Assembly (NCBI GenBank): GCA_001821135.1
Contig: MHSA01000011.1
Coordinates: forward strand, 3,042 to 67,041
Direction: 5' to 3'
Source: Candidatus Taylorbacteria bacterium RIFCSPLOWO2_01_FULL_48_100
Lineage (GTDB): Bacteria; Patescibacteriota; Minisyncoccia; Phycocordibacterales; UBA10002
DNA length: 64,000 nt
In this document: positions 2,876 through 21,951 of the stretch, in pieces
How the letters are laid out: every line of letters begins with the position of its first letter
Position numbering within the stretch: the first letter of the stretch is position 1
The notes under the pieces: model-generated
What the model was told of the DNA's origin: nothing
Databases searched by the model: none
The model's input: only the letters and a program-made list of their open reading frames with translations
Program-made: the position numbers and the translations under genes

Positions 2876-3661
2876 ATGAAAAAAGGACACGCAATCACTC
2901 TTGGTATCGTCGCAGGTGTAATTATTTTAATACTCACTGCGATAGTTGGATATCTTTCAGGGAAAAACACACATCGTCCGCAGGCGATTTCAGTTACTAA
3001 CACTCCACCGCCCACCATTGTGGTGCAGACGAACGCGCCAAGTCAGGTTGACATGCTTGCCGCCGAGGTGGAGGCACTGAAGGCCGCCAATGAAGAAAGG
3101 GAGGCGAGGGTGCAGAGATTGCTCGCACTCAACGAAGAAGTTCGTCGGGAGCGGGAGACCAATGTCATCACAATACCCGTCACGGTGAATGTAACCAACA
3201 CACCATCTTCGGTGACTATTAACGGCACTTTTAATGTTGGTGGTTCATCAGAGGCAAAGAAGGCGGCGACTTCGTTGATGGAGCGAAGGCGTGCACCGAA
3301 AACGCGGACCCCGATGTACACCATCACAAACTCCACCTCGTCTGTGACGGTTTCTGGAACCACTACGGTTTCGGAGACACACACCTCGGTGCAGAACTTT
3401 CTGCCACCTGGACGGCGAAGTTTGCTCGGTGTGATTCTTTGGGGTCGGGCAAACCCCATTCCGACCACGGTGCCGAGCGGGCAAAGTGTCCAACAAGGAC
3501 AACCGCCGACGCCTATCGTGGTTGTCCAGCAACCATATGGATATGGGTATCCGTCTGGGTATGGCGGTGGGTATGGATACGGATATCCATACAGCCGAGT
3601 GCCCGCATATTCGGGTTCGTGTGAACGCAAACTCTTCGGAGTTCGCTTTCATACGAGGTAG
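2876..3661 (+). CDS. Hypothetical membrane-anchored protein with a Pro/Thr-rich region and a C-terminal Gly/Tyr/Pro low-complexity tail
   Basis: 261-aa ORF downstream of a strong promoter. It has an N-terminal TM helix, a coiled-coil-like AEVEALKAANEEREARVQRLLALNEE segment and a GYGYP repeat tail. No recognisable domain. Confidence 0.5.
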   Translation: MKKGHAITLGIVAGVIILILTAIVGYLSGKNTHRPQAISVTNTPPPTIVVQTNAPSQVDMLAAEVEALKAANEEREARVQRLLALNEEVRRERETNVITIPVTVNVTNTPSSVTINGTFNVGGSSEAKKAATSLMERRRAPKTRTPMYTITNSTSSVTVSGTTTVSETHTSVQNFLPPGRRSLLGVILWGRANPIPTTVPSGQSVQQGQPPTPIVVVQQPYGYGYPSGYGGGYGYGYPYSRVPAYSGSCERKLFGVRFHTR

Positions 3662-15993: not shown

Positions 15994-16227
15994 AATAACT
16001 TTAGTATATCTAATCCATTATTCGTTTGCAATTAAAGATTTTCAGTCAGAAATTCAATGTCTTAAACTGCTCATCGTTTGCGCCAGTCAAAATAATCTTC
16101 TTATTAGGAAATGTCTCAAGTAAATCGTACATTTCTTTAAAAATTCCCTCGCCTTTAATAATAAATACTTGTACCGCATCAACAAGAATTGTTTTCATGG
16201 TTTTTTCATTTTTAATTTCAATAAAAA

Positions 16228-16314
16228 CGGAGGGGGTGAGATTCGAACTCACGAACGGTGTAAACCGTTAGAAGTTTTCAAGACTTCCGCACTAGACCTC
16301 TATGCGACCCCTCC
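16228..16314 (-). tRNA. tRNA-Ser (anticodon TGA), class II with a long variable arm
   Basis: The reverse complement folds as GGAGGGG...GAAGT-CTTGAAA-ACTTC...long variable arm...GTGAG-TTCGAAT-CTCAC-CCCCTCC-G. Confidence 0.75.
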
Positions 16315-16345
16315 CTCGCTACGATACTATCAAAATGAGCCGATA

Positions 16346-16741
16346 ATGTATAATGGCGCAATGCGCTTTATAGGCATTGATTACGGAACAAAGCGGGTGG
16401 GGGTGGCGGTGTCGGACGAGGAGGGGAAAATTGCGTTTCCGCATGTGGTCTTGGCGAATGACGAGAATCTGGTAACCGCGCTCGCGGCGCTGTGCCGCGA
16501 GCGCGGCGTGTCGGAAATTGTTGTCGGCGACTCGCGCGATTTTGCAGGCGAGCCGAATAAAATAACTGCGCACGTTAAAAAGTTTACAAAAGAAATTGTA
16601 GATGCAACGGGGCTTCCGGTACACAGCGAACCCGAGTTTTGGTCTTCGGCGCAAGCCGAGCGGTGGCAAGGCAAGACCGAAAAATTAGACGCTTCCGCCG
16701 CCGCTATTATTTTGCAAAGTTTTTTGGATAGAAATTGTTAA
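16346..16741 (+). CDS. ruvX: Holliday junction resolvase-like protein RuvX/YqgF
   Basis: MRFIGIDYGTKRVGVAVSD...IVVGDSRDF is the YqgF signature. The 5' extension of the tracked ORF overlaps the tRNA-Ser, so the start is set at the internal ATG 16346 (alternative 16361). Confidence 0.8.
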   Translation: MYNGAMRFIGIDYGTKRVGVAVSDEEGKIAFPHVVLANDENLVTALAALCRERGVSEIVVGDSRDFAGEPNKITAHVKKFTKEIVDATGLPVHSEPEFWSSAQAERWQGKTEKLDASAAAIILQSFLDRNC

Positions 16742-16790
16742 CCAAAACATACTTCTACAAAGCCGTATTCTCGCTGTTCCTCCACGGCAC

Positions 16791-16820
16791 TTGACAAAAA
16801 AGCATCAGTTATGCTATACT
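16791..16820 (+). promoter_or_regulatory. Sigma70-like promoter: TTGACA, 18-nt spacer, TATACT, upstream of the DGR target gene
   Basis: Consensus hexamers, with the same TGCTATACT -10 context as the promoters at 2796 and 11521. Confidence 0.55.
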
Positions 16821-16888
16821 GTTAGGTAGTTCAATGTACCTTGTAAGGTTACGGAGGACTGTTAAATCAACAACTCAAAAAAGAAAGG

Positions 16889-17674
16889 ATGGCTATGAAT
16901 AAAGTAGTCGTCGGTCAATCGGTTACGGCTGGCCAAATGAAGGACTTCTGGCGTCAGGTTGACGATGGAAGTATTGGTGGAGATTATTTTCAAGATTTTC
17001 TCGCACACAAACTGGAAAGGAAAGATGGGAACACGGTATCAGAAGTGACAACACCAAAAATCGTCATCCCAAACCTCCTCTCCACCCCTCCCACCCTCGC
17101 CGACTGGCTCAAAGCCCGAGAGGAACTGCACAAGTTCCTTACAGGTGAGCAGGTGATTCTGCGCGATATCTTCGCCCTCACGGACGAAGAACTCGCCAGC
17201 ACCACGCTGATGCCCGCCTTTCGTCCTGCAGGTGCCACCAACCGTAATGCGATTTATTGGAAAATCAAAATTGGGGAGAACAAACCCTATGAAGAAATAG
17301 ATGTAATGAAGTACACAAACAGTCAAGGTCCAAAACAACCCGAGCTGTACATCATCAACCGCTCCGTTACACCAGATGACGACACGGTCGGCGACAAAGC
17401 CAAGAGTCCCAACCAACTCATCGCTCACAACAAGCTATGGCTCGGACTCTTCTGCTGGTGCGATGCAGATACTCTGCATCATGTCATTACCGGAGAGACC
17501 CTTGACCAAAAAACTTGGACATGGTTCCCAAACGACCGTCTCCGCTACGCCAAGGTTGCGCTCGGCTACTGGAACCCGCTCAACCGCCGGGTCTACCTCT
17601 ACTGGCGCTATGCCGTCTATTGCAATCCGAACAACGGCGCTCGCTCAGCAAAAAAAGTTCCCATTAAATCTTGA
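16889..17674 (+). CDS. DGR target (variable) protein; the C-terminal ~35 aa are encoded by the VR
   Basis: 261 aa. The C-terminus ...RYAKVALGYWNPLNRRVYLYWRYAVYCNPNNGARS aligns with the TR-encoded NGKVANGNWNPNNRQVYLNWNYADNCNPNNGARS. Confidence 0.8.
   Translation: MAMNKVVVGQSVTAGQMKDFWRQVDDGSIGGDYFQDFLAHKLERKDGNTVSEVTTPKIVIPNLLSTPPTLADWLKAREELHKFLTGEQVILRDIFALTDEELASTTLMPAFRPAGATNRNAIYWKIKIGENKPYEEIDVMKYTNSQGPKQPELYIINRSVTPDDDTVGDKAKSPNQLIAHNKLWLGLFCWCDADTLHHVITGETLDQKTWTWFPNDRLRYAKVALGYWNPLNRRVYLYWRYAVYCNPNNGARSAKKVPIKS
17542..17648 (+). repeat. DGR variable repeat (VR)
   Basis: About 84% identical to the TR at 17938-18044. It differs from the TR only where the TR has A (apart from one edge position). 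It ends in the shared GC-rich CGGCGCTCGCTCAG (IMH-like). Confidence 0.85.
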
Positions 17675-17937
17675 ACCTTTCCCCCTTAAATCTTACTCGC
17701 TTCTTCGGTGGGTAGGTCATCGCCACTGTGGATACCCATGGTGGCGATTTTGTTACACTAACAACGGCTGTGAAATTGGTCCAGCACTTACCGTAAGTGC
17801 TGGATAACAATTTGCCAAAAAAGAAATTGCTTGCTGCATTTTTATACAATGCTCGCTCTACCCCGAGATAACACAGAAAACTGTGTAAACGATTTTCGGT
17901 GATACGGATGAAGACGCGGCACAATGAGGCACCGTCT

Positions 17938-18044
17938 CCACAACGGCAAGGTTGCGAACGGCAACTGGAACCCGAACAACCGCCAGGTCTACCTCAACTG
18001 GAACTATGCCGACAATTGCAATCCGAACAACGGCGCTCGCTCAG
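17938..18044 (+). repeat. DGR template repeat (TR)
   Basis: Non-coding copy of the VR with many AAC codons. All informative mismatches are TR-A to VR-N. Confidence 0.85.
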
Positions 18045-18066
18045 AAATTTCTCGTACCAAGGAGCC

Positions 18067-18386
18067 GTTACGGCTCCTTGGTCGTTTCGTAAGTTATCCA
18101 ACCGTTTAACATCTTTGCGATTTCAACGAGTTGCGATGACAAGCGGAGATATATTTTTTCCGTGAAAATACCAAGTTCATATTCTGTTCGAATGAGGTGA
18201 ATTACTCGGTGAACTTGAATGCGCGCCCCCTTTAAGAATAGGAATCTTTTCTTTTCTTGAAGTCAAAGATGCCGCAATCGTTGTGGCGAGTAATTCTAGA
18301 GTATATTTCTCAACCGTCGCATGAATTCCTAATTTGTCTCCCTTCGGCAATTTCTTCCCAATCTCGTAAATCTCTTTATGCAACAA
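18067..18386 (-). pseudogene. avd: DGR accessory variability determinant (avd, four-helix bundle), interrupted by a frameshift at a C5/G5 homopolymer near 18226-18230
   Basis: The N-terminal 69-aa ORF (EIYEIGKKLPKGDKLGIHATVEKYTLELLATTIAAS) matches the Avd/23S-IVS family. The +1 frame continues as ...YELGIFTEKIYLRLSSQLVEIAKMLNGWI, which resembles the Avd C-terminal helix. Confidence 0.55.
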
Positions 18387-18393
18387 TCGAATC

Positions 18394-19281
18394 TTGAGAA
18401 TAACTGATGGTGTCTTGTCGGGGGGGCGTCATAGTAGTGATTTTTATGATGTAATCTCGCTCGAACATCTACTCTGTGCATGGCGGAAGTTCTCCAAGGG
18501 AAAGCGAACCGACAGTGAAGTTGCAAAGTTTGAATTATGTTTGGAAGAAAATCTTTTCTCTCTCCACGAACGATTGGCGCAAGGAGTATGGACAAACGAC
18601 CCCTACCGACGCCAACCAGTTGCTGACCTCAAACCTCGCGTCATTCATATTCCGAGCGTTCGCGACCGAGTTCTTTTTCAAGCCGTATATCAAGCATTGT
18701 ATCAGATATTTGATAAGACATTTATCCACGACTCGTACGCTTCCGGGAAATGCAAAGGAACGCATACAGGCGTGAACCGATTTGAGACATTTGCACAAAA
18801 AGTATCTGCAAATCATACCAAACCCGCTTTTGTCTTGAAATGCGATATCAAAAAGTTTTTTGCAAATATCTACCTGAATGAACTAGACCAATTCGTAAAA
18901 CACAAACTTAAGGTGCGGTACTATATTCGTTACTGCGATGATTTCGTGATTTTAGACAATTCACACAAACAACTTCTGTCGCACATTTCTGCACTCCGCG
19001 CATTTCTCAATGAAAAACTCTTGCTAGAACTGCATCCGAGCAAGGTAACCATACGAAAATTGCATCAGGGAACCGATTTTCTTGGTTATGTCTCTCTCCC
19101 ACACTATCGCGTATTGCGGACAAAGACAAAACAGAGGATGCTCGCGCGAGTGAGTGAGAAGAATGTTGCGTCATATCTCGGAATGTTATCTCATTGCTGT
19201 TCCCACAATTTAACGAAAAAAATTTTGGCGGGTTATACTAAGGCGGTACAACATCATGCAATTCATACAATCTATTATTGA
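18394..19281 (+). CDS. DGR reverse transcriptase
   Basis: RT motifs present: PRVIHIPSVRDRVLFQAV (motif 1/2), LKCDIKKFF, the YCDDFVIL (YxDD) motif, and LELHPSKVTIRKLHQGTDFLGY. The tracked ORF starts at a TTG. Confidence 0.8.
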   Translation: MRITDGVLSGGRHSSDFYDVISLEHLLCAWRKFSKGKRTDSEVAKFELCLEENLFSLHERLAQGVWTNDPYRRQPVADLKPRVIHIPSVRDRVLFQAVYQALYQIFDKTFIHDSYASGKCKGTHTGVNRFETFAQKVSANHTKPAFVLKCDIKKFFANIYLNELDQFVKHKLKVRYYIRYCDDFVILDNSHKQLLSHISALRAFLNEKLLLELHPSKVTIRKLHQGTDFLGYVSLPHYRVLRTKTKQRMLARVSEKNVASYLGMLSHCCSHNLTKKILAGYTKAVQHHAIHTIYY

Positions 19282-19894
19282 TTTTCTAAATCCTACTTTT
19301 CTCATTACCGCGGTCGGTATTTTCGGGGTTTTTGCGATTGTGTTTGCCGAGTCGGGACTCTTTTTCGGTTTTTTCTTGCCGGGGGATTCGCTCCTTTTTA
19401 CTGCGGGGCTTCTCGCGTCGCTCGGGCACTTCAATATAGTGTGGCTATGGCTTGGCTGTATGGCGTGCGCAATTTTAGGCGATAGCGTTGGATATGCGTT
19501 TGGAAAGAAGATTGGACAGAAAATCTTCACGCGCGAGGATTCGCTCTTTTTTCACAAAAAACATATAGAGCGTACGCAGAAGTTTTATGCACGCTACGGC
19601 AAGAAGACCGTCGTGCTTGCGCGCTTCGTGCCGATTGTCCGCACTTTCGCGCCAATTCTAGCGGGGGTAGGGAAGATGGAGTATCGTACTTTTCTTGCGT
19701 ACAATATTATCGGAGGTATGTTATGGGCGACTCTTCTAATTTTTCTCGGTTTTTTTCTCGGTATGTTCATTCCAGACCCCGACCGTTACTTGATGCCGCT
19801 AATATTCGTTATTATTTTCATCTCCTTCCTTCCGATTTTTCGCGAATGGTGGAAAAGTAGAAAAAAGAGAGGTGATATACTGGAAGTATGGTGA
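19256..19894 (+). CDS. DedA-family (SNARE-associated) membrane protein
   Basis: FFLPGDSLLFTAGLLA and ARFVPIVRTFAPILAGVGKM are DedA motifs. Confidence 0.75.
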   Translation: MQFIQSIIDFLNPTFLITAVGIFGVFAIVFAESGLFFGFFLPGDSLLFTAGLLASLGHFNIVWLWLGCMACAILGDSVGYAFGKKIGQKIFTREDSLFFHKKHIERTQKFYARYGKKTVVLARFVPIVRTFAPILAGVGKMEYRTFLAYNIIGGMLWATLLIFLGFFLGMFIPDPDRYLMPLIFVIIFISFLPIFREWWKSRKKRGDILEVW

Positions 19895-20868
19895 ATGCGC
19901 TCATGAAGTTGTTTACTCCTCCGCGATTTCTTGCGATGCCCGCGCCGGGCATTGAAATTTCGGACGCATTTGTGCGCGCGCTTTCTTTTTCTGGGGCACC
20001 TGGAAATCTGCGCGTTGCGTGGTGGGAAGAAACAGCACTCCCTACTGGCGCGGTAGTCGGCGGAGTCATAAGCGATAAAAAAGCGGTTATTGAGATATTG
20101 AAAAAGATGCGGAGCGCACACCGCTTTAGTTTTGCGCATATCGCACTTCCAGAACAGCAGGTGTATTTATTTGAGATGTCCGCGCCAGTAGTTTCTAATG
20201 AGGAAACACACGCCGCGATTGAACTTCGTCTTGAAGAACATGTGCCGGTGCGCTCTACAGAAGCAGTGTTTGATTTTGATATGCAACGCGCCAATGCGGG
20301 TGCGCCAGGAGTAGAACGATTATTCCGCGTCGCAGTCGCTTCGCGAAGGACTTCTGAGATGTATGCGAGCGTATGCGAGGAAGCGGGTATTGCGCCGCTT
20401 TCGTTTGACAGCGAGGCGAACGCTGTCGCGCGCGCCGTGGTTGGAATACATGACCCTCGCGCGATTTTAGTCGCGCACCTCTCTGAAGATGATACTGGTT
20501 TGTATATTGTGAGTGACGGGGCGGTTCGTTTCGCGTCTACTGTGCCTCTCTCAGCAGAAAAGCTGGCATCTGACCCTGCGGCGCAAGAGGCGCTCGCGAG
20601 CGAAGCGGCGCGCGTATGCTCATTTTGGGAAGCGCATCGCGATAAAAAGAGCCGCGCGATTGAGAGTGTAGTTGCGTGCGGGCGCGGCGCGGCATTTCCG
20701 CGCATCCTTTCTGCGCTTTCGTCCACGCTTCATATTACGGCGGAGCCCGCGCTTGTGTGGGGCAATGCATTTTCTTTGGAGCGCACGGTACCTTCTTTGC
20801 CGCGCGACGAGTCGCTCCGTTTCTCTGTTCCTGCGGGTCTTGCGCTCCGCTCATTCATTTATGTTTAA
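19888..20868 (+). CDS. pilM: Type IV pilus assembly protein PilM-like (actin-fold ATPase)
   Basis: 326 aa. The call rests mainly on context, directly upstream of the PilN-like and PilO-like genes. Confidence 0.5.
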   Translation: MVNALMKLFTPPRFLAMPAPGIEISDAFVRALSFSGAPGNLRVAWWEETALPTGAVVGGVISDKKAVIEILKKMRSAHRFSFAHIALPEQQVYLFEMSAPVVSNEETHAAIELRLEEHVPVRSTEAVFDFDMQRANAGAPGVERLFRVAVASRRTSEMYASVCEEAGIAPLSFDSEANAVARAVVGIHDPRAILVAHLSEDDTGLYIVSDGAVRFASTVPLSAEKLASDPAAQEALASEAARVCSFWEAHRDKKSRAIESVVACGRGAAFPRILSALSSTLHITAEPALVWGNAFSLERTVPSLPRDESLRFSVPAGLALRSFIYV

Positions 20869-21406
20869 CTTACTTACCGAACATGCGAAAAGAGGTGCGA
20901 TGCGCGAATATCGCGCGCGACTTATAACAGTTCTATGTGTTTTTGTTGGCGCAGAGTTATTGCTTGCTGCGAGCGGCGGCGTATTTTCTTTTGTCGCATT
21001 GCGCGAAGAAGGGAAGCGTCTCGCGAGCGAGTTGGAAGTGCTCCACAGCACGCGCGCTTTGACTGAAGAAACTGTGATGATTGAAGAAGTGAAAAAAACA
21101 AAAGCTCGTCTTGGTTTTCTAGTGTCGCCGCATCCAATTCAGGTAGCAGAAGCGGTGTCTGCGTTTGCGTCATTACGCACCGCCGGGATTCATCTTGTTG
21201 CAATCAATGTGATACTGAACGCAGAAATAGAGTGGACGATTTCTGTAAGCGGGGTTGCGGCAACGCGAGATGCGCTTGCCGAGTTTGAGAGTGCCGTGAA
21301 GGCGGACCGCCGATTTGCGGATTCCGATTTTCCACTCGGAAGTCTCGCAAAAGAGAAAGATATAGCTTTTAATATTTCCGCGATGTATCTCGGAGATTCT
21401 ATATAA
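20861..21406 (+). CDS. pilN: Type IV pilus assembly protein PilN-like
   Basis: N-terminal MFNLLTE resembles the conserved PilN INLLP motif; a single TM helix follows, then a periplasmic domain. The 5' extension of the tracked ORF (from 20672) is rejected. Confidence 0.5.
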   Translation: MFNLLTEHAKRGAMREYRARLITVLCVFVGAELLLAASGGVFSFVALREEGKRLASELEVLHSTRALTEETVMIEEVKKTKARLGFLVSPHPIQVAEAVSAFASLRTAGIHLVAINVILNAEIEWTISVSGVAATRDALAEFESAVKADRRFADSDFPLGSLAKEKDIAFNISAMYLGDSI

Positions 21407-21408
21407 CT

Positions 21409-21951
21409 ATGACGCCCTTTCGTTCAACGAAGTTCCTTTTGTGGGTTAGCGCAGGACTTGCGCTCGCGGCAGTAACACTGTATGCCGCGCTTTGGTTTGT
21501 GTTTACACTGGAACAGTCGCGAGTGTCTGCCGCTGCTGGCGCGCTTGCGGATGCGGCACAAGCGCGCATTTCCGACACTGCGCTCCGCGCGCTTTTGTCT
21601 GAAACCGAGGAAAAGCGCGCGCAGGCGAACGAATTGTTTGTTGGGAGGGGCGATACTGTCGCATTTCTGAAAGATCTTGAAGTGGTTGGCGCGGATGCGG
21701 GAGTTAAGACGAAAGTTGTCAGTGTTGCAAAAGCCGAAAGCGTTGAAGACGCTGATACACTTGCGGAGGCGGGTCTTGAAACGCTTGCAATCGCAGTTGA
21801 GGCAAGCGGCAGCTTTTCTGGTACGCACCGCTTCCTTGTGTTATTGGAACGAATGCCGCGCACAATTTCCATTCGGCGCGCGTCGTTTGCTATGGACGAT
21901 AACGGTATTTGGAACGGCGTATTTGAGATTCAAGTTCTCAAGATTAAATAG
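21409..21951 (+). CDS. pilO: Type IV pilus assembly protein PilO-like
   Basis: N-terminal TM helix, a coiled-coil region and a C-terminal domain; sits after pilM and pilN in the same orientation. Confidence 0.45.
   Translation: MTPFRSTKFLLWVSAGLALAAVTLYAALWFVFTLEQSRVSAAAGALADAAQARISDTALRALLSETEEKRAQANELFVGRGDTVAFLKDLEVVGADAGVKTKVVSVAKAESVEDADTLAEAGLETLAIAVEASGSFSGTHRFLVLLERMPRTISIRRASFAMDDNGIWNGVFEIQVLKIK

Follow-up and report, generated by a model that had tools for sequence, protein, structure and literature searches.

Does the cassette at 16889-19281 of this window, the whole 64-kb stretch of Candidatus Taylorbacteria DNA that was analysed, still diversify its target gene? An earlier note had described it as a complete diversity-generating retroelement (DGR), which implies a working one. 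The data described below do not support a working element, given a deletion in the reverse transcriptase (RT), a frameshift in avd and an invariant VR. We propose instead, with a probability of about 0.8, that the locus is a chromosomal CPR 'B3' DGR that was recently inactivated and whose VR is a fixed allele.

The gene order itself is familiar. A target gene with a C-terminal VR is followed by the TR, by avd (accessory variability determinant) on the opposite strand and by the RT gene. The intact relatives L007 and L008 have the same layout, with a target, a TR, a reverse-strand avd of 103-105 aa that carries PF22296 and an RT of 328-338 aa, and the architecture matches that of 65 of the 83 loci examined. 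The arrangement TR, reverse-strand avd, RT is that of type B3, TR-(avd)-RT, to which 90% of CPR DGRs belong (Wu et al. 2018, PMC5758913). The cassette is therefore not of unknown type.

The repeat pair, its target and the surrounding RNA elements

A repeat search returned a direct repeat, 17535-17651 against 17931-18047, with a spacing of 396. The upstream copy contains the VR (17535-17648, plus strand), which lies at the 3' end of the target gene and encodes residues ~217 to 253; the downstream copy contains the TR (17931-18044, plus strand), which is intergenic. Both placements agree with the earlier note, which had one copy ending the ORF 16889-17674 and the other lying between genes. The TR holds 33 adenines and 10 AAC codons, and all but one of these adenines (32 of 33) occupy the first or second codon position of the VR frame. 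Over the 107 nt first compared, the two repeats differ at 14 positions and are 87% identical, which corrects an initial count of 17 differences and 84% identity. The adenine bias stands: 13 of the 14 mismatches are at TR adenines (A to T seven times, A to G three times and A to C three times; hypergeometric P = 1.5e-7, given that 33 of the 114 nt are A), and the only other mismatch is a G to C change at TR 17946. All 13 A-site changes hit the first or second base of a codon, most often AAC, and they alter 10 VR residues relative to the TR-encoded sequence; the non-A change alters one (G221A). These adenine-specific differences had rightly been recognised as a DGR signature, and DGR mutagenesis clearly wrote the present VR, with its 13 A-site changes and 10 recoded residues.

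Both repeats end, as had been noted, in the same GC-rich CGGCGCTCGCTCAG, at 17635-17648 in the VR and 18031-18044 in the TR (plus strand). Judged by sequence, this element is IMH-like and may represent the IMH and IMH* at the 3' ends of the two repeats. TR/VR homology stops 1-3 nt past it, and the VR has no A-site change 3' of 17618.

The target gene (16889-17674, plus strand) encodes a protein of 261 aa with the VR at its C-terminus. Structure prediction gives residues ~66 to 261 a C-type-lectin/FGE-like fold, with the VR on the predicted C-terminal ligand-binding face; this supports the C-type-lectin-like target suggested previously, with Foldseek E-values for the fold that are not significant. 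The protein has no Pfam domain in a Pfam search and no match in a PDB sequence search. A surface location had also been considered, and the protein shows no signal peptide, TM segment, or lipoprotein or secretion signal. Its family is small (43 proteins from the search), and the named members are all from CPR/Patescibacteria.

Several non-coding elements flank the TR. The hairpin previously reported downstream of the VR is present, at 17719-17748 rather than ~17737-17767 (plus strand). It starts 71 nt past the VR end, not ~90 nt, and 45 nt past the target stop codon, and it has 13 pairs, including G-T pairs, around a 4-nt loop. Because the stem is followed by TTTTGTT, which extends the element to 17755, it looks like a terminator and is better read as that of the target gene. 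The alignment with L007 and L008 shows that L008 has a stem of other sequence at this position, followed by the same conserved TTTTGTTA. The next stretch, 17756-17930 (plus strand), is a non-coding block 5' of the TR with conserved columns in the alignment with L007 and L008; it contains a TATACAAT box at 17844-17851 and TTTTCGGTGATACGGATGAAG at ~17893-17913, and more distant loci have a related motif containing GGTGATACGGA on the 5' side of their TR. A consensus promoter scan made no promoter call in this block, which we regard as a candidate promoter and 5' leader of a TR RNA.

On the other side, 13 nt past the TR, a GC-rich stem-loop, CCAAGGAGCC-GTTAC-GGCTCCTTGG, is predicted at 18057-18081 (plus strand), and the avd stop codon (TAA, minus strand, 18068-18070) lies within its loop. 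The stem is kept in L007 and L008 although its sequence differs, and a hairpin soon after the TR, usually with a T-run, occurs in most of the 65 CPR cassettes checked. Stem-loops directly 3' of the TR have been described in 207 of 278 DGRs (bioRxiv 10.1101/2023.10.23.563531). The present one is a candidate Avd-binding stem-loop and/or TR-RNA terminator; such roles for the RNA elements around the TR are ones that we infer. Rfam returned no family within 17600-18500, even at E <= 1, and only tRNAs over the whole window. For a duplex between the upstream and downstream sides of the TR (a 'cPRT stop') we make no claim, as RNA duplex folding gave over-extended, uninterpretable pairings.

Lesions in the reverse transcriptase and avd genes

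The RT gene (18394-19281, plus strand) encodes 295 aa with YCDD at 18931-18942, just as had been read from the ORF. The catalytic D151 and the YCDD are retained, the best match among solved structures is Bordetella bRT (8ub7, E 7.5e-27), and the nearest homologues sit in cassettes with A-biased TR/VR pairs; its sequence identifies it as an RT of the DGR clade. DNA alignment with homologues reveals an exact 150-bp in-frame deletion in this gene. The 50 missing residues (FDSIDH...GLPLGNVTSQ), present in all 11 aligned homologues, span the second half of motif 3 and the whole of motif 4 (GLPLGNVTSQ). The junction is at ~18856-18862, in AAGTTTTTTGCAAAT, and TTTT(T/C)G stands at both breakpoints as a 6-nt microhomology. 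PF00078 accordingly matches the RT in two pieces, the alignment to bRT 8ub7 skips bRT residues ~155 to 186, and the RT core is left without a motif 4 of the form [LIV]GxxxSQ. From 597 confirmed RT relatives we kept 80, nearly all titled CPR/Patescibacteria; 79 of these 80 retain the G[NS]xx[ST]Q motif together with at least 46 extra residues, and the pattern G[NSTAQ]xx[ST]Q, present in 79 of the 80, is absent from this RT. In bRT, contacts to the template base and to the incoming dNTP come from residues I181, G182 and Q187 (bioRxiv 10.1101/2023.10.23.563531). We infer that the RT has lost its polymerase activity.

The RT carries further changes: R118G (18745-18747), in a column that is invariant across 57 homologues, P79L, and the in-frame loss of one GGG codon in the G-run 18420-18426. 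Outside the deletion there is no excess of private substitutions, and the ORF is still open. Together with the kept aspartates, this pattern fits a very recent loss, and it would also fit continued constraint. The exact 295-aa RT is encoded on 23 contigs. No intact allele was seen; among 5.8 billion proteins, the RT that comes next reaches only 63% identity.

The avd gene (18068-18386, minus strand) is broken by a +1 frameshift, which six-frame translation and tblastn place best in the C5 run 18226-18230, which reads as G5 in the coding direction, and the frameshifted, minus-strand Avd-like gene of the earlier note is thereby confirmed. The 5' part reads to 18231, and the 3' part occupies 18253-18068 in another frame; tblastn with the intact Avd of L008 recovers the two in their separate frames at 88% and 80% identity. 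A full-length PF22296 (bAvd) match appears only after repair, at E 4.7e-8 and over profile positions 12-105 of 107; its 33.9 bits are below the Pfam cut-off of 40 bits, as is the intact L008 Avd, which scores at the same level. The repaired Avd had no match in a PDB sequence search. We also considered a second avd frameshift, located in the G7 run 18420-18426 and combined with an ATG start near 18433, and rejected it: the Avd proteins of L007 and L008 start at the same TTG/LHKEIY, and the difference in this run is the lost GGG codon of the RT, not an avd lesion. The element is thus not the complete DGR first described, with an RT that lacks 50 residues including the DGR-defining motif 4 and an avd that is frameshifted.

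The avd frameshift occurs in all fetched contigs. That its extra base is best placed in a homopolymer could be taken to mean that the frameshift is a reversible on/off phase-variation switch of the DGR. A 5-nt run is short for frequent slippage, however, the run is of equal length in all seven fetched contigs, and the 150-bp RT deletion cannot revert, so that we consider such a switch highly improbable. The same homopolymer, and the fact that MAG assemblies can collapse repeats, could point to an assembly or sequencing artefact behind both lesions. This explanation is scarcely credible, because the same sequence recurs in independent ENA, NCBI and JGI assemblies made with different assemblers from different samples, and the deletion is flanked by no long repeats, only by the microhomology.

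Invariance of the VR among assembled contigs

The same VR is found on at least 25 contigs, compared as contig consensus, that is, by the majority allele only, so that low-frequency variants could be missed. Six independently assembled contigs match the region 16700-19400 at 100% identity, as does a seventh (L089) over 17339-19667. Among four variants of the target protein, carried by 23 contigs, no VR column varies, and a scan of metagenome contigs with the VR 5' flank added one further contig, again identical. As a control, the variation within six of eight homologous protein clusters is nearly confined to the VR, with 12/13, 13/13, 13/14, 24/27, 22/32 and 33/45 of their variable columns in the last 50 residues. 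In a related Taylorbacteria target, 17 of 100 VR nucleotides differ, whereas the remainder of the gene differs at 1 of 690. The other two control clusters are likewise without VR variation, and VR invariance alone is therefore weak evidence. Moreover, the sampled population is nearly clonal, most of it belongs to a single aquifer system, and its contigs differ by only about one SNP per 7-10 kb, so that many contigs do not amount to many independent lineages.

At the level of contig consensus, then, there is no sign of ongoing VR diversification, and the population variability that the earlier note had looked to speaks, as far as the assemblies show, against activity. A complete DGR that currently diversifies its target would account for the adenine signature, the IMH, the RNA elements flanking the TR, the RT ORF with its YCDD and the presence of an Avd-like gene. 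It would have to do so with an RT lacking motif 4 and half of motif 3, with a frameshifted avd and with a VR that is identical on all these contigs when homologous clusters vary in theirs, and we judge it very unlikely.

An alternative accepts that the local RT and Avd are dead and supposes that an intact RT-Avd pair elsewhere services the TR and VR in trans, which would make the target conditionally or rarely diversified. There are precedents that make this conceivable: a related genome carries two cassettes of the same family, and in one homologous Taylorbacteria target the VR differs between strains although no TR, avd or RT lies within 3 kb of it. Here the TR, the IMH and the flanking RNA elements are also undamaged. 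Against service in trans, no contig or cluster member shows any VR variation, and a scan of the 64-kb window found no second VR, RT or avd; we regard it as unlikely. Separately, the TR of the Taylorbacteria cassette L095 was tried as the template for the orphan target in L092 and did not match.

Related to this is the idea that the shortened RT ORF, the undamaged TR and RNA elements and the fixed VR are retained on purpose, either as a locus serviced in trans or for a non-mutagenic role of the RT and TR RNA. Either version would explain why the rest of the cassette has not degenerated. The second, if true, would imply a function such as RNA binding or regulation by the truncated RT and the TR RNA. 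We consider retention of this kind unlikely.

We therefore return to a recently inactivated B3 DGR. By the standard mechanism, as proposed for intact relatives, the TR would be transcribed as a short RNA from the conserved upstream block, with the stem-loop a few nucleotides past the TR. The RT-Avd complex would copy this RNA into cDNA, misincorporating opposite template adenines, and exchange of the VR for this cDNA, as far as the IMH, would recode about a dozen Asn-type codons that belong to the ligand-binding face of a C-type-lectin-like protein. Later, the microhomology-flanked 150-bp deletion removed an RT palm segment, in frame, and R118G in the RT and the +1 frameshift in the homopolymer run of avd would have added to the disabling. 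Given the RT and avd lesions, the VR would now be a frozen allele, and the target would persist as an ordinary gene of fixed sequence. The inactivation is probably recent, because the RT outside these lesions is still intact, as are the TR, the IMH and the RNA elements, and a single non-A mismatch separates TR from VR.

The element is of an ordinary kind and points to no new mechanism. It does offer a natural snapshot of early DGR decay, in which the protein machinery would go first, the TR, VR and RNA elements stay intact and the target is kept as a fixed allele. With an RVT_1 match, an A-biased TR/VR pair, an IMH and an Avd-like gene, the locus would probably be called a functional DGR by criteria built on an RT plus TR/VR; checking RT motif 4 and the integrity of avd would improve estimates of the number of active DGRs.

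Comparison with known DGRs

The DGR of Bordetella phage BPP-1 (mtd-avd-TR-brt) is phage-borne, whereas the present element is chromosomal, with its avd inverted and downstream of the TR. Its IMH and IMH* are identical, unlike those of BPP-1, and its hairpin lies 71 nt from the VR and is terminator-like, where that of BPP-1 abuts the IMH. Relative to bRT (8ub7), the RT lacks the equivalent of residues ~155 to 186, with I181 and G182 among those lost, and where bRT has Q187 it carries Lys. The known variable proteins TvpA (2y3c) and TaqVP (5vf4), and the FGE-sulfatase/CLec fold, have no detectable sequence similarity to the target, in line with its lack of Pfam and PDB matches.

The closest known systems are the CPR B3 DGRs (Wu et al. 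2018, PMC5758913; DGR clade 2, Roux et al. 2021, PMC8144416), with which the cassette shares gene order, orientation and RT clade. Their spacings agree as well (VR to TR 350-520 nt, TR to RT ~350-450 nt), and the post-TR hairpin, the phylum and the groundwater habitat are held in common. Unlike these elements, the present copy is missing motif 4 and the rest of a 50-residue RT segment, its avd is frameshifted and its VR is invariant; its nearest intact relatives, L008 and L007 (61-68% RT identity), carry none of these RT and avd lesions.

The repeat pair, its flanking RNA elements and the target gene

A repeat search of the window recovers a direct repeat at 17535-17651 and 17931-18047, spaced 396 nt apart. 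The template (TR) and variable (VR) repeats of the diversity-generating retroelement (DGR) described in the earlier note are thus present, one copy forming the 3' end of the target ORF (16889-17674, plus strand) and the other being intergenic. The 17 differences and 84% identity over 107 nt reported there become, on recounting those 107 nt of VR (17535-17648) and TR (17931-18044), 14 mismatches and 87%; the bias toward adenine sites holds. Thirteen of the 14 mismatches lie at TR adenines (seven A to T, three A to G, three A to C), and the sole exception is a G to C difference at TR 17946. With 33 adenines in the 114-nt TR, at least 13 of 14 would fall on A by chance with P = 1.5e-7. All 13 A-site changes occupy codon positions 1 or 2, as do 32 of the 33 TR adenines; the TR carries 10 AAC codons, and 10 residues are recoded in the VR. 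Both repeats end in the GC-rich, IMH-like sequence CGGCGCTCGCTCAG (VR 17635-17648; TR 18031-18044). The substitution bias is much stronger in a cassette of another Taylorbacteria genome (L095, 3162-3284 versus 3520-3642), where A to G accounts for 16 of 19 TR/VR differences.

Ahead of the TR lies a conserved non-coding block with a TATACAAT box (17844-17851), and 13 nt behind it starts a GC-rich stem-loop (18057-18081); because of these two elements, the TR RNA would probably be a short self-contained transcript. Matching hairpins stand behind the TR in the related cassettes L007 and L008, and a comparable hairpin shortly past the TR, usually with a T-run, was found in most of the 65 CPR (Patescibacteria) cassettes checked. 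Of 278 DGRs, among them CPR elements, 207 are reported to have stem-loops just downstream of the TR, to which binding of the accessory protein Avd was assigned (bioRxiv 10.1101/2023.10.23.563531). The loop of 18057-18081 contains the avd stop codon, so that in the window, at any rate, the same stretch of DNA specifies the C-terminus of Avd on one strand and the RNA hairpin behind the TR on the other.

The target protein (GenBank OHA18981.1) has no match in Pfam and none in a PDB sequence search. Its family is small (43 proteins found, all named sources being CPR) and combines a conserved core with a hypervariable C-terminus. Contigs carrying exactly this protein and the reverse transcriptase (RT; OHA18980.1), from Candidatus Taylorbacteria MAGs, originate from groundwater metagenomes. 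The hairpin previously placed at about 17737-17767 does exist, but at 17719-17748, 45 nt past the target stop codon. Since TTTTGTT directly follows its 13-pair stem (4-nt loop), it is best read as the terminator of the target gene. At the equivalent site of L008, which with L007 represents the closest intact cassettes, a stem of other sequence precedes an identical TTTTGTTA.

Lesions in the reverse transcriptase and avd

The RT ORF (18394-19281, plus strand; 295 aa, PF00078) has as its best solved-structure match the Bordetella DGR enzyme bRT (8ub7, E 7.5e-27). The cassette had been described as complete, which it is not: avd is frameshifted, and alignment with the 11 closest RT homologues (55-73% identity) reveals that 50 consecutive residues (FDSIDH...GLPLGNVTSQI) are absent. 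The missing stretch, nearly invariant among those homologues, comprises the end of motif 3 and the whole of motif 4. Relative to L007 and L008, the DNA gap is exactly 150 bp, between AAGTTTTTTG and CAAAT, and TTTT(T/C)G stands at both breakpoints in these two loci. The HMMER alignment to bRT breaks at the same site, omitting bRT residues ~155 to 186; the structure of bRT with Avd and RNA shows the palm residues I181, G182 and Q187 touching the template base and the incoming dNTP (bioRxiv 10.1101/2023.10.23.563531). The motif G[NS]xx[ST]Q, with at least 46 additional residues, is retained in 79 of 80 CPR relatives and is lacking in the window RT. Two substitutions accompany the deletion, with no excess of private changes beyond them: R118G, at a position where 57 homologues show no variation, and P79L, where conservation is at least 95%. 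One GGG codon is also lost from the N-terminal SGGG(R/H)H, the G-run at 18420-18426 being G7 versus G10 or G11 in relatives.

The Avd homologue, on the minus strand between TR and RT, is divided over two frames, its pieces being 88% and 80% identical to the intact L008 Avd. Removing one base of the C5 run at 18226-18230 repairs this +1 frameshift, and the restored protein matches PF22296 (bAvd) at the level of L008 Avd (E 4.7e-8, profile positions 12-105 of 107). As in L007 and L008, avd (minus, TTG at 18386 or 18383) and RT (plus, TTG at 18394) begin nearly back to back, so the upstream region of each gene lies inside the other.

The deletion, point changes, frameshift and G-run loss are not artefacts, an explanation excluded because independent assemblies agree: six contigs assembled independently (ENA, NCBI, JGI) show 100% identity over 16700-19400, a seventh (L089) does so over 17339-19667, and 23 contigs carry the exact 295-aa RT. 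Among 5.8 billion proteins, the next-best RT reaches no more than 63% identity, and thus no intact allele was seen. Phase variation at the avd C5 run is unlikely, as the run has the same length everywhere and the RT deletion is incapable of reverting.

In intact relatives, we infer a standard DGR cycle, in which RT-Avd would copy the TR RNA with misincorporation at adenines and the cDNA would then replace the VR up to the IMH. In the window genome this cycle is inferred to be disabled, because Avd is truncated and the RT lacks the part of the palm that binds template and dNTP; the present VR would be the last allele written. Judged from sequence, the loss is probably recent, because TR, IMH, RNA elements and remaining RT sequence are intact and there is a single non-A mismatch (0-3 in intact relatives).

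Variation in the population and genomic surroundings

Variability of the VR in the population had been proposed as a test, and none appears among contigs, which report majority alleles from a nearly clonal population (about one SNP per 7-10 kb). The target's 90% cluster comprises four protein variants from 23 contigs, differing in start site, an alternative N-terminus and D169N, and at no VR position. Among eight homologous clusters used as controls, two likewise lack VR variation, and in the other six the differences between members are nearly confined to the final 50 residues (13/13, 13/14, 12/13, 24/27, 22/32 and 33/45 variable columns). Between two strains of another Taylorbacteria population (L090-L094), 17 of 100 VR nucleotides differ, every one at codon position 1 or 2, versus a single difference in the remaining 690 nt of the gene. 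Active diversification is therefore picked up by this method where present, and none is found here. Together with the RT deletion and avd frameshift, this invariance contradicts an active, complete DGR. It also speaks against a second DGR acting in trans on this TR/VR pair, as does the lack of a second RT or avd within the 64-kb window; we consider such complementation improbable, even though one relative genome (GCA_030697445.1) carries two cassettes, L007 and L008, and orphan targets exist.

Those orphans, in L090-L094 (e.g. L092:3001-3819; GCA_001822505.1, MHRC01000020.1), are flanked by a Mur-ligase gene and ruvA-rpsT and have no TR, avd or RT within 3 kb; their VR appears to be diversified in trans. 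The L095 TR does not serve the L092 target, a sequence match having been sought and none found.

The window cassette lies among the housekeeping genes ruvA, rpsT, ruvX and uppS, with no phage genes nearby. The RT ORF overlaps a DedA/VTT-domain membrane protein gene (19256-19894) by 26 nt (19256-19281). Upstream, the mechanically called ORF 16169-16741 overlaps tRNA-Ser(TGA) (minus strand, 16228-16314), and its RuvX match covers residues 65-187 only, placing the true ruvX start near 16361. Because type IV pilus or type II secretion-like genes adjoin the target family in several loci, there are hints of a link between target and pili: PilM_2 and small ORFs downstream of the cassette (19888-21951), T2SSF and N_methyl prepilin genes upstream of the L008 target (L008:1-1016), and T2SSE near the L093 target (L093:5423-6598). 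L007 has no such neighbours.

Relation to known CPR retroelements

L007 and L008 share the window layout (target-VR, TR, reverse avd, RT), with avd of 103-105 aa and RT of 328-338 aa. The same arrangement with an A-biased TR/VR pair was found in 65 of 83 loci examined, nearly all from CPR relatives. The arrangement corresponds to architecture B3, TR-(avd)-RT, found in 90% of CPR DGRs (Wu et al. 2018, PMC5758913), and a DGR clade restricted to Patescibacteria has been described (Roux et al. 2021, PMC8144416). An RT match plus a TR/VR pair, taken as criteria, would probably count this dead cassette as functional; its value is chiefly to warn DGR surveys and to show decay at an early stage. The literature covers CPR DGRs of B3 architecture well, and the MAGs are public; particular to this case is the clean documentation of a dead copy.
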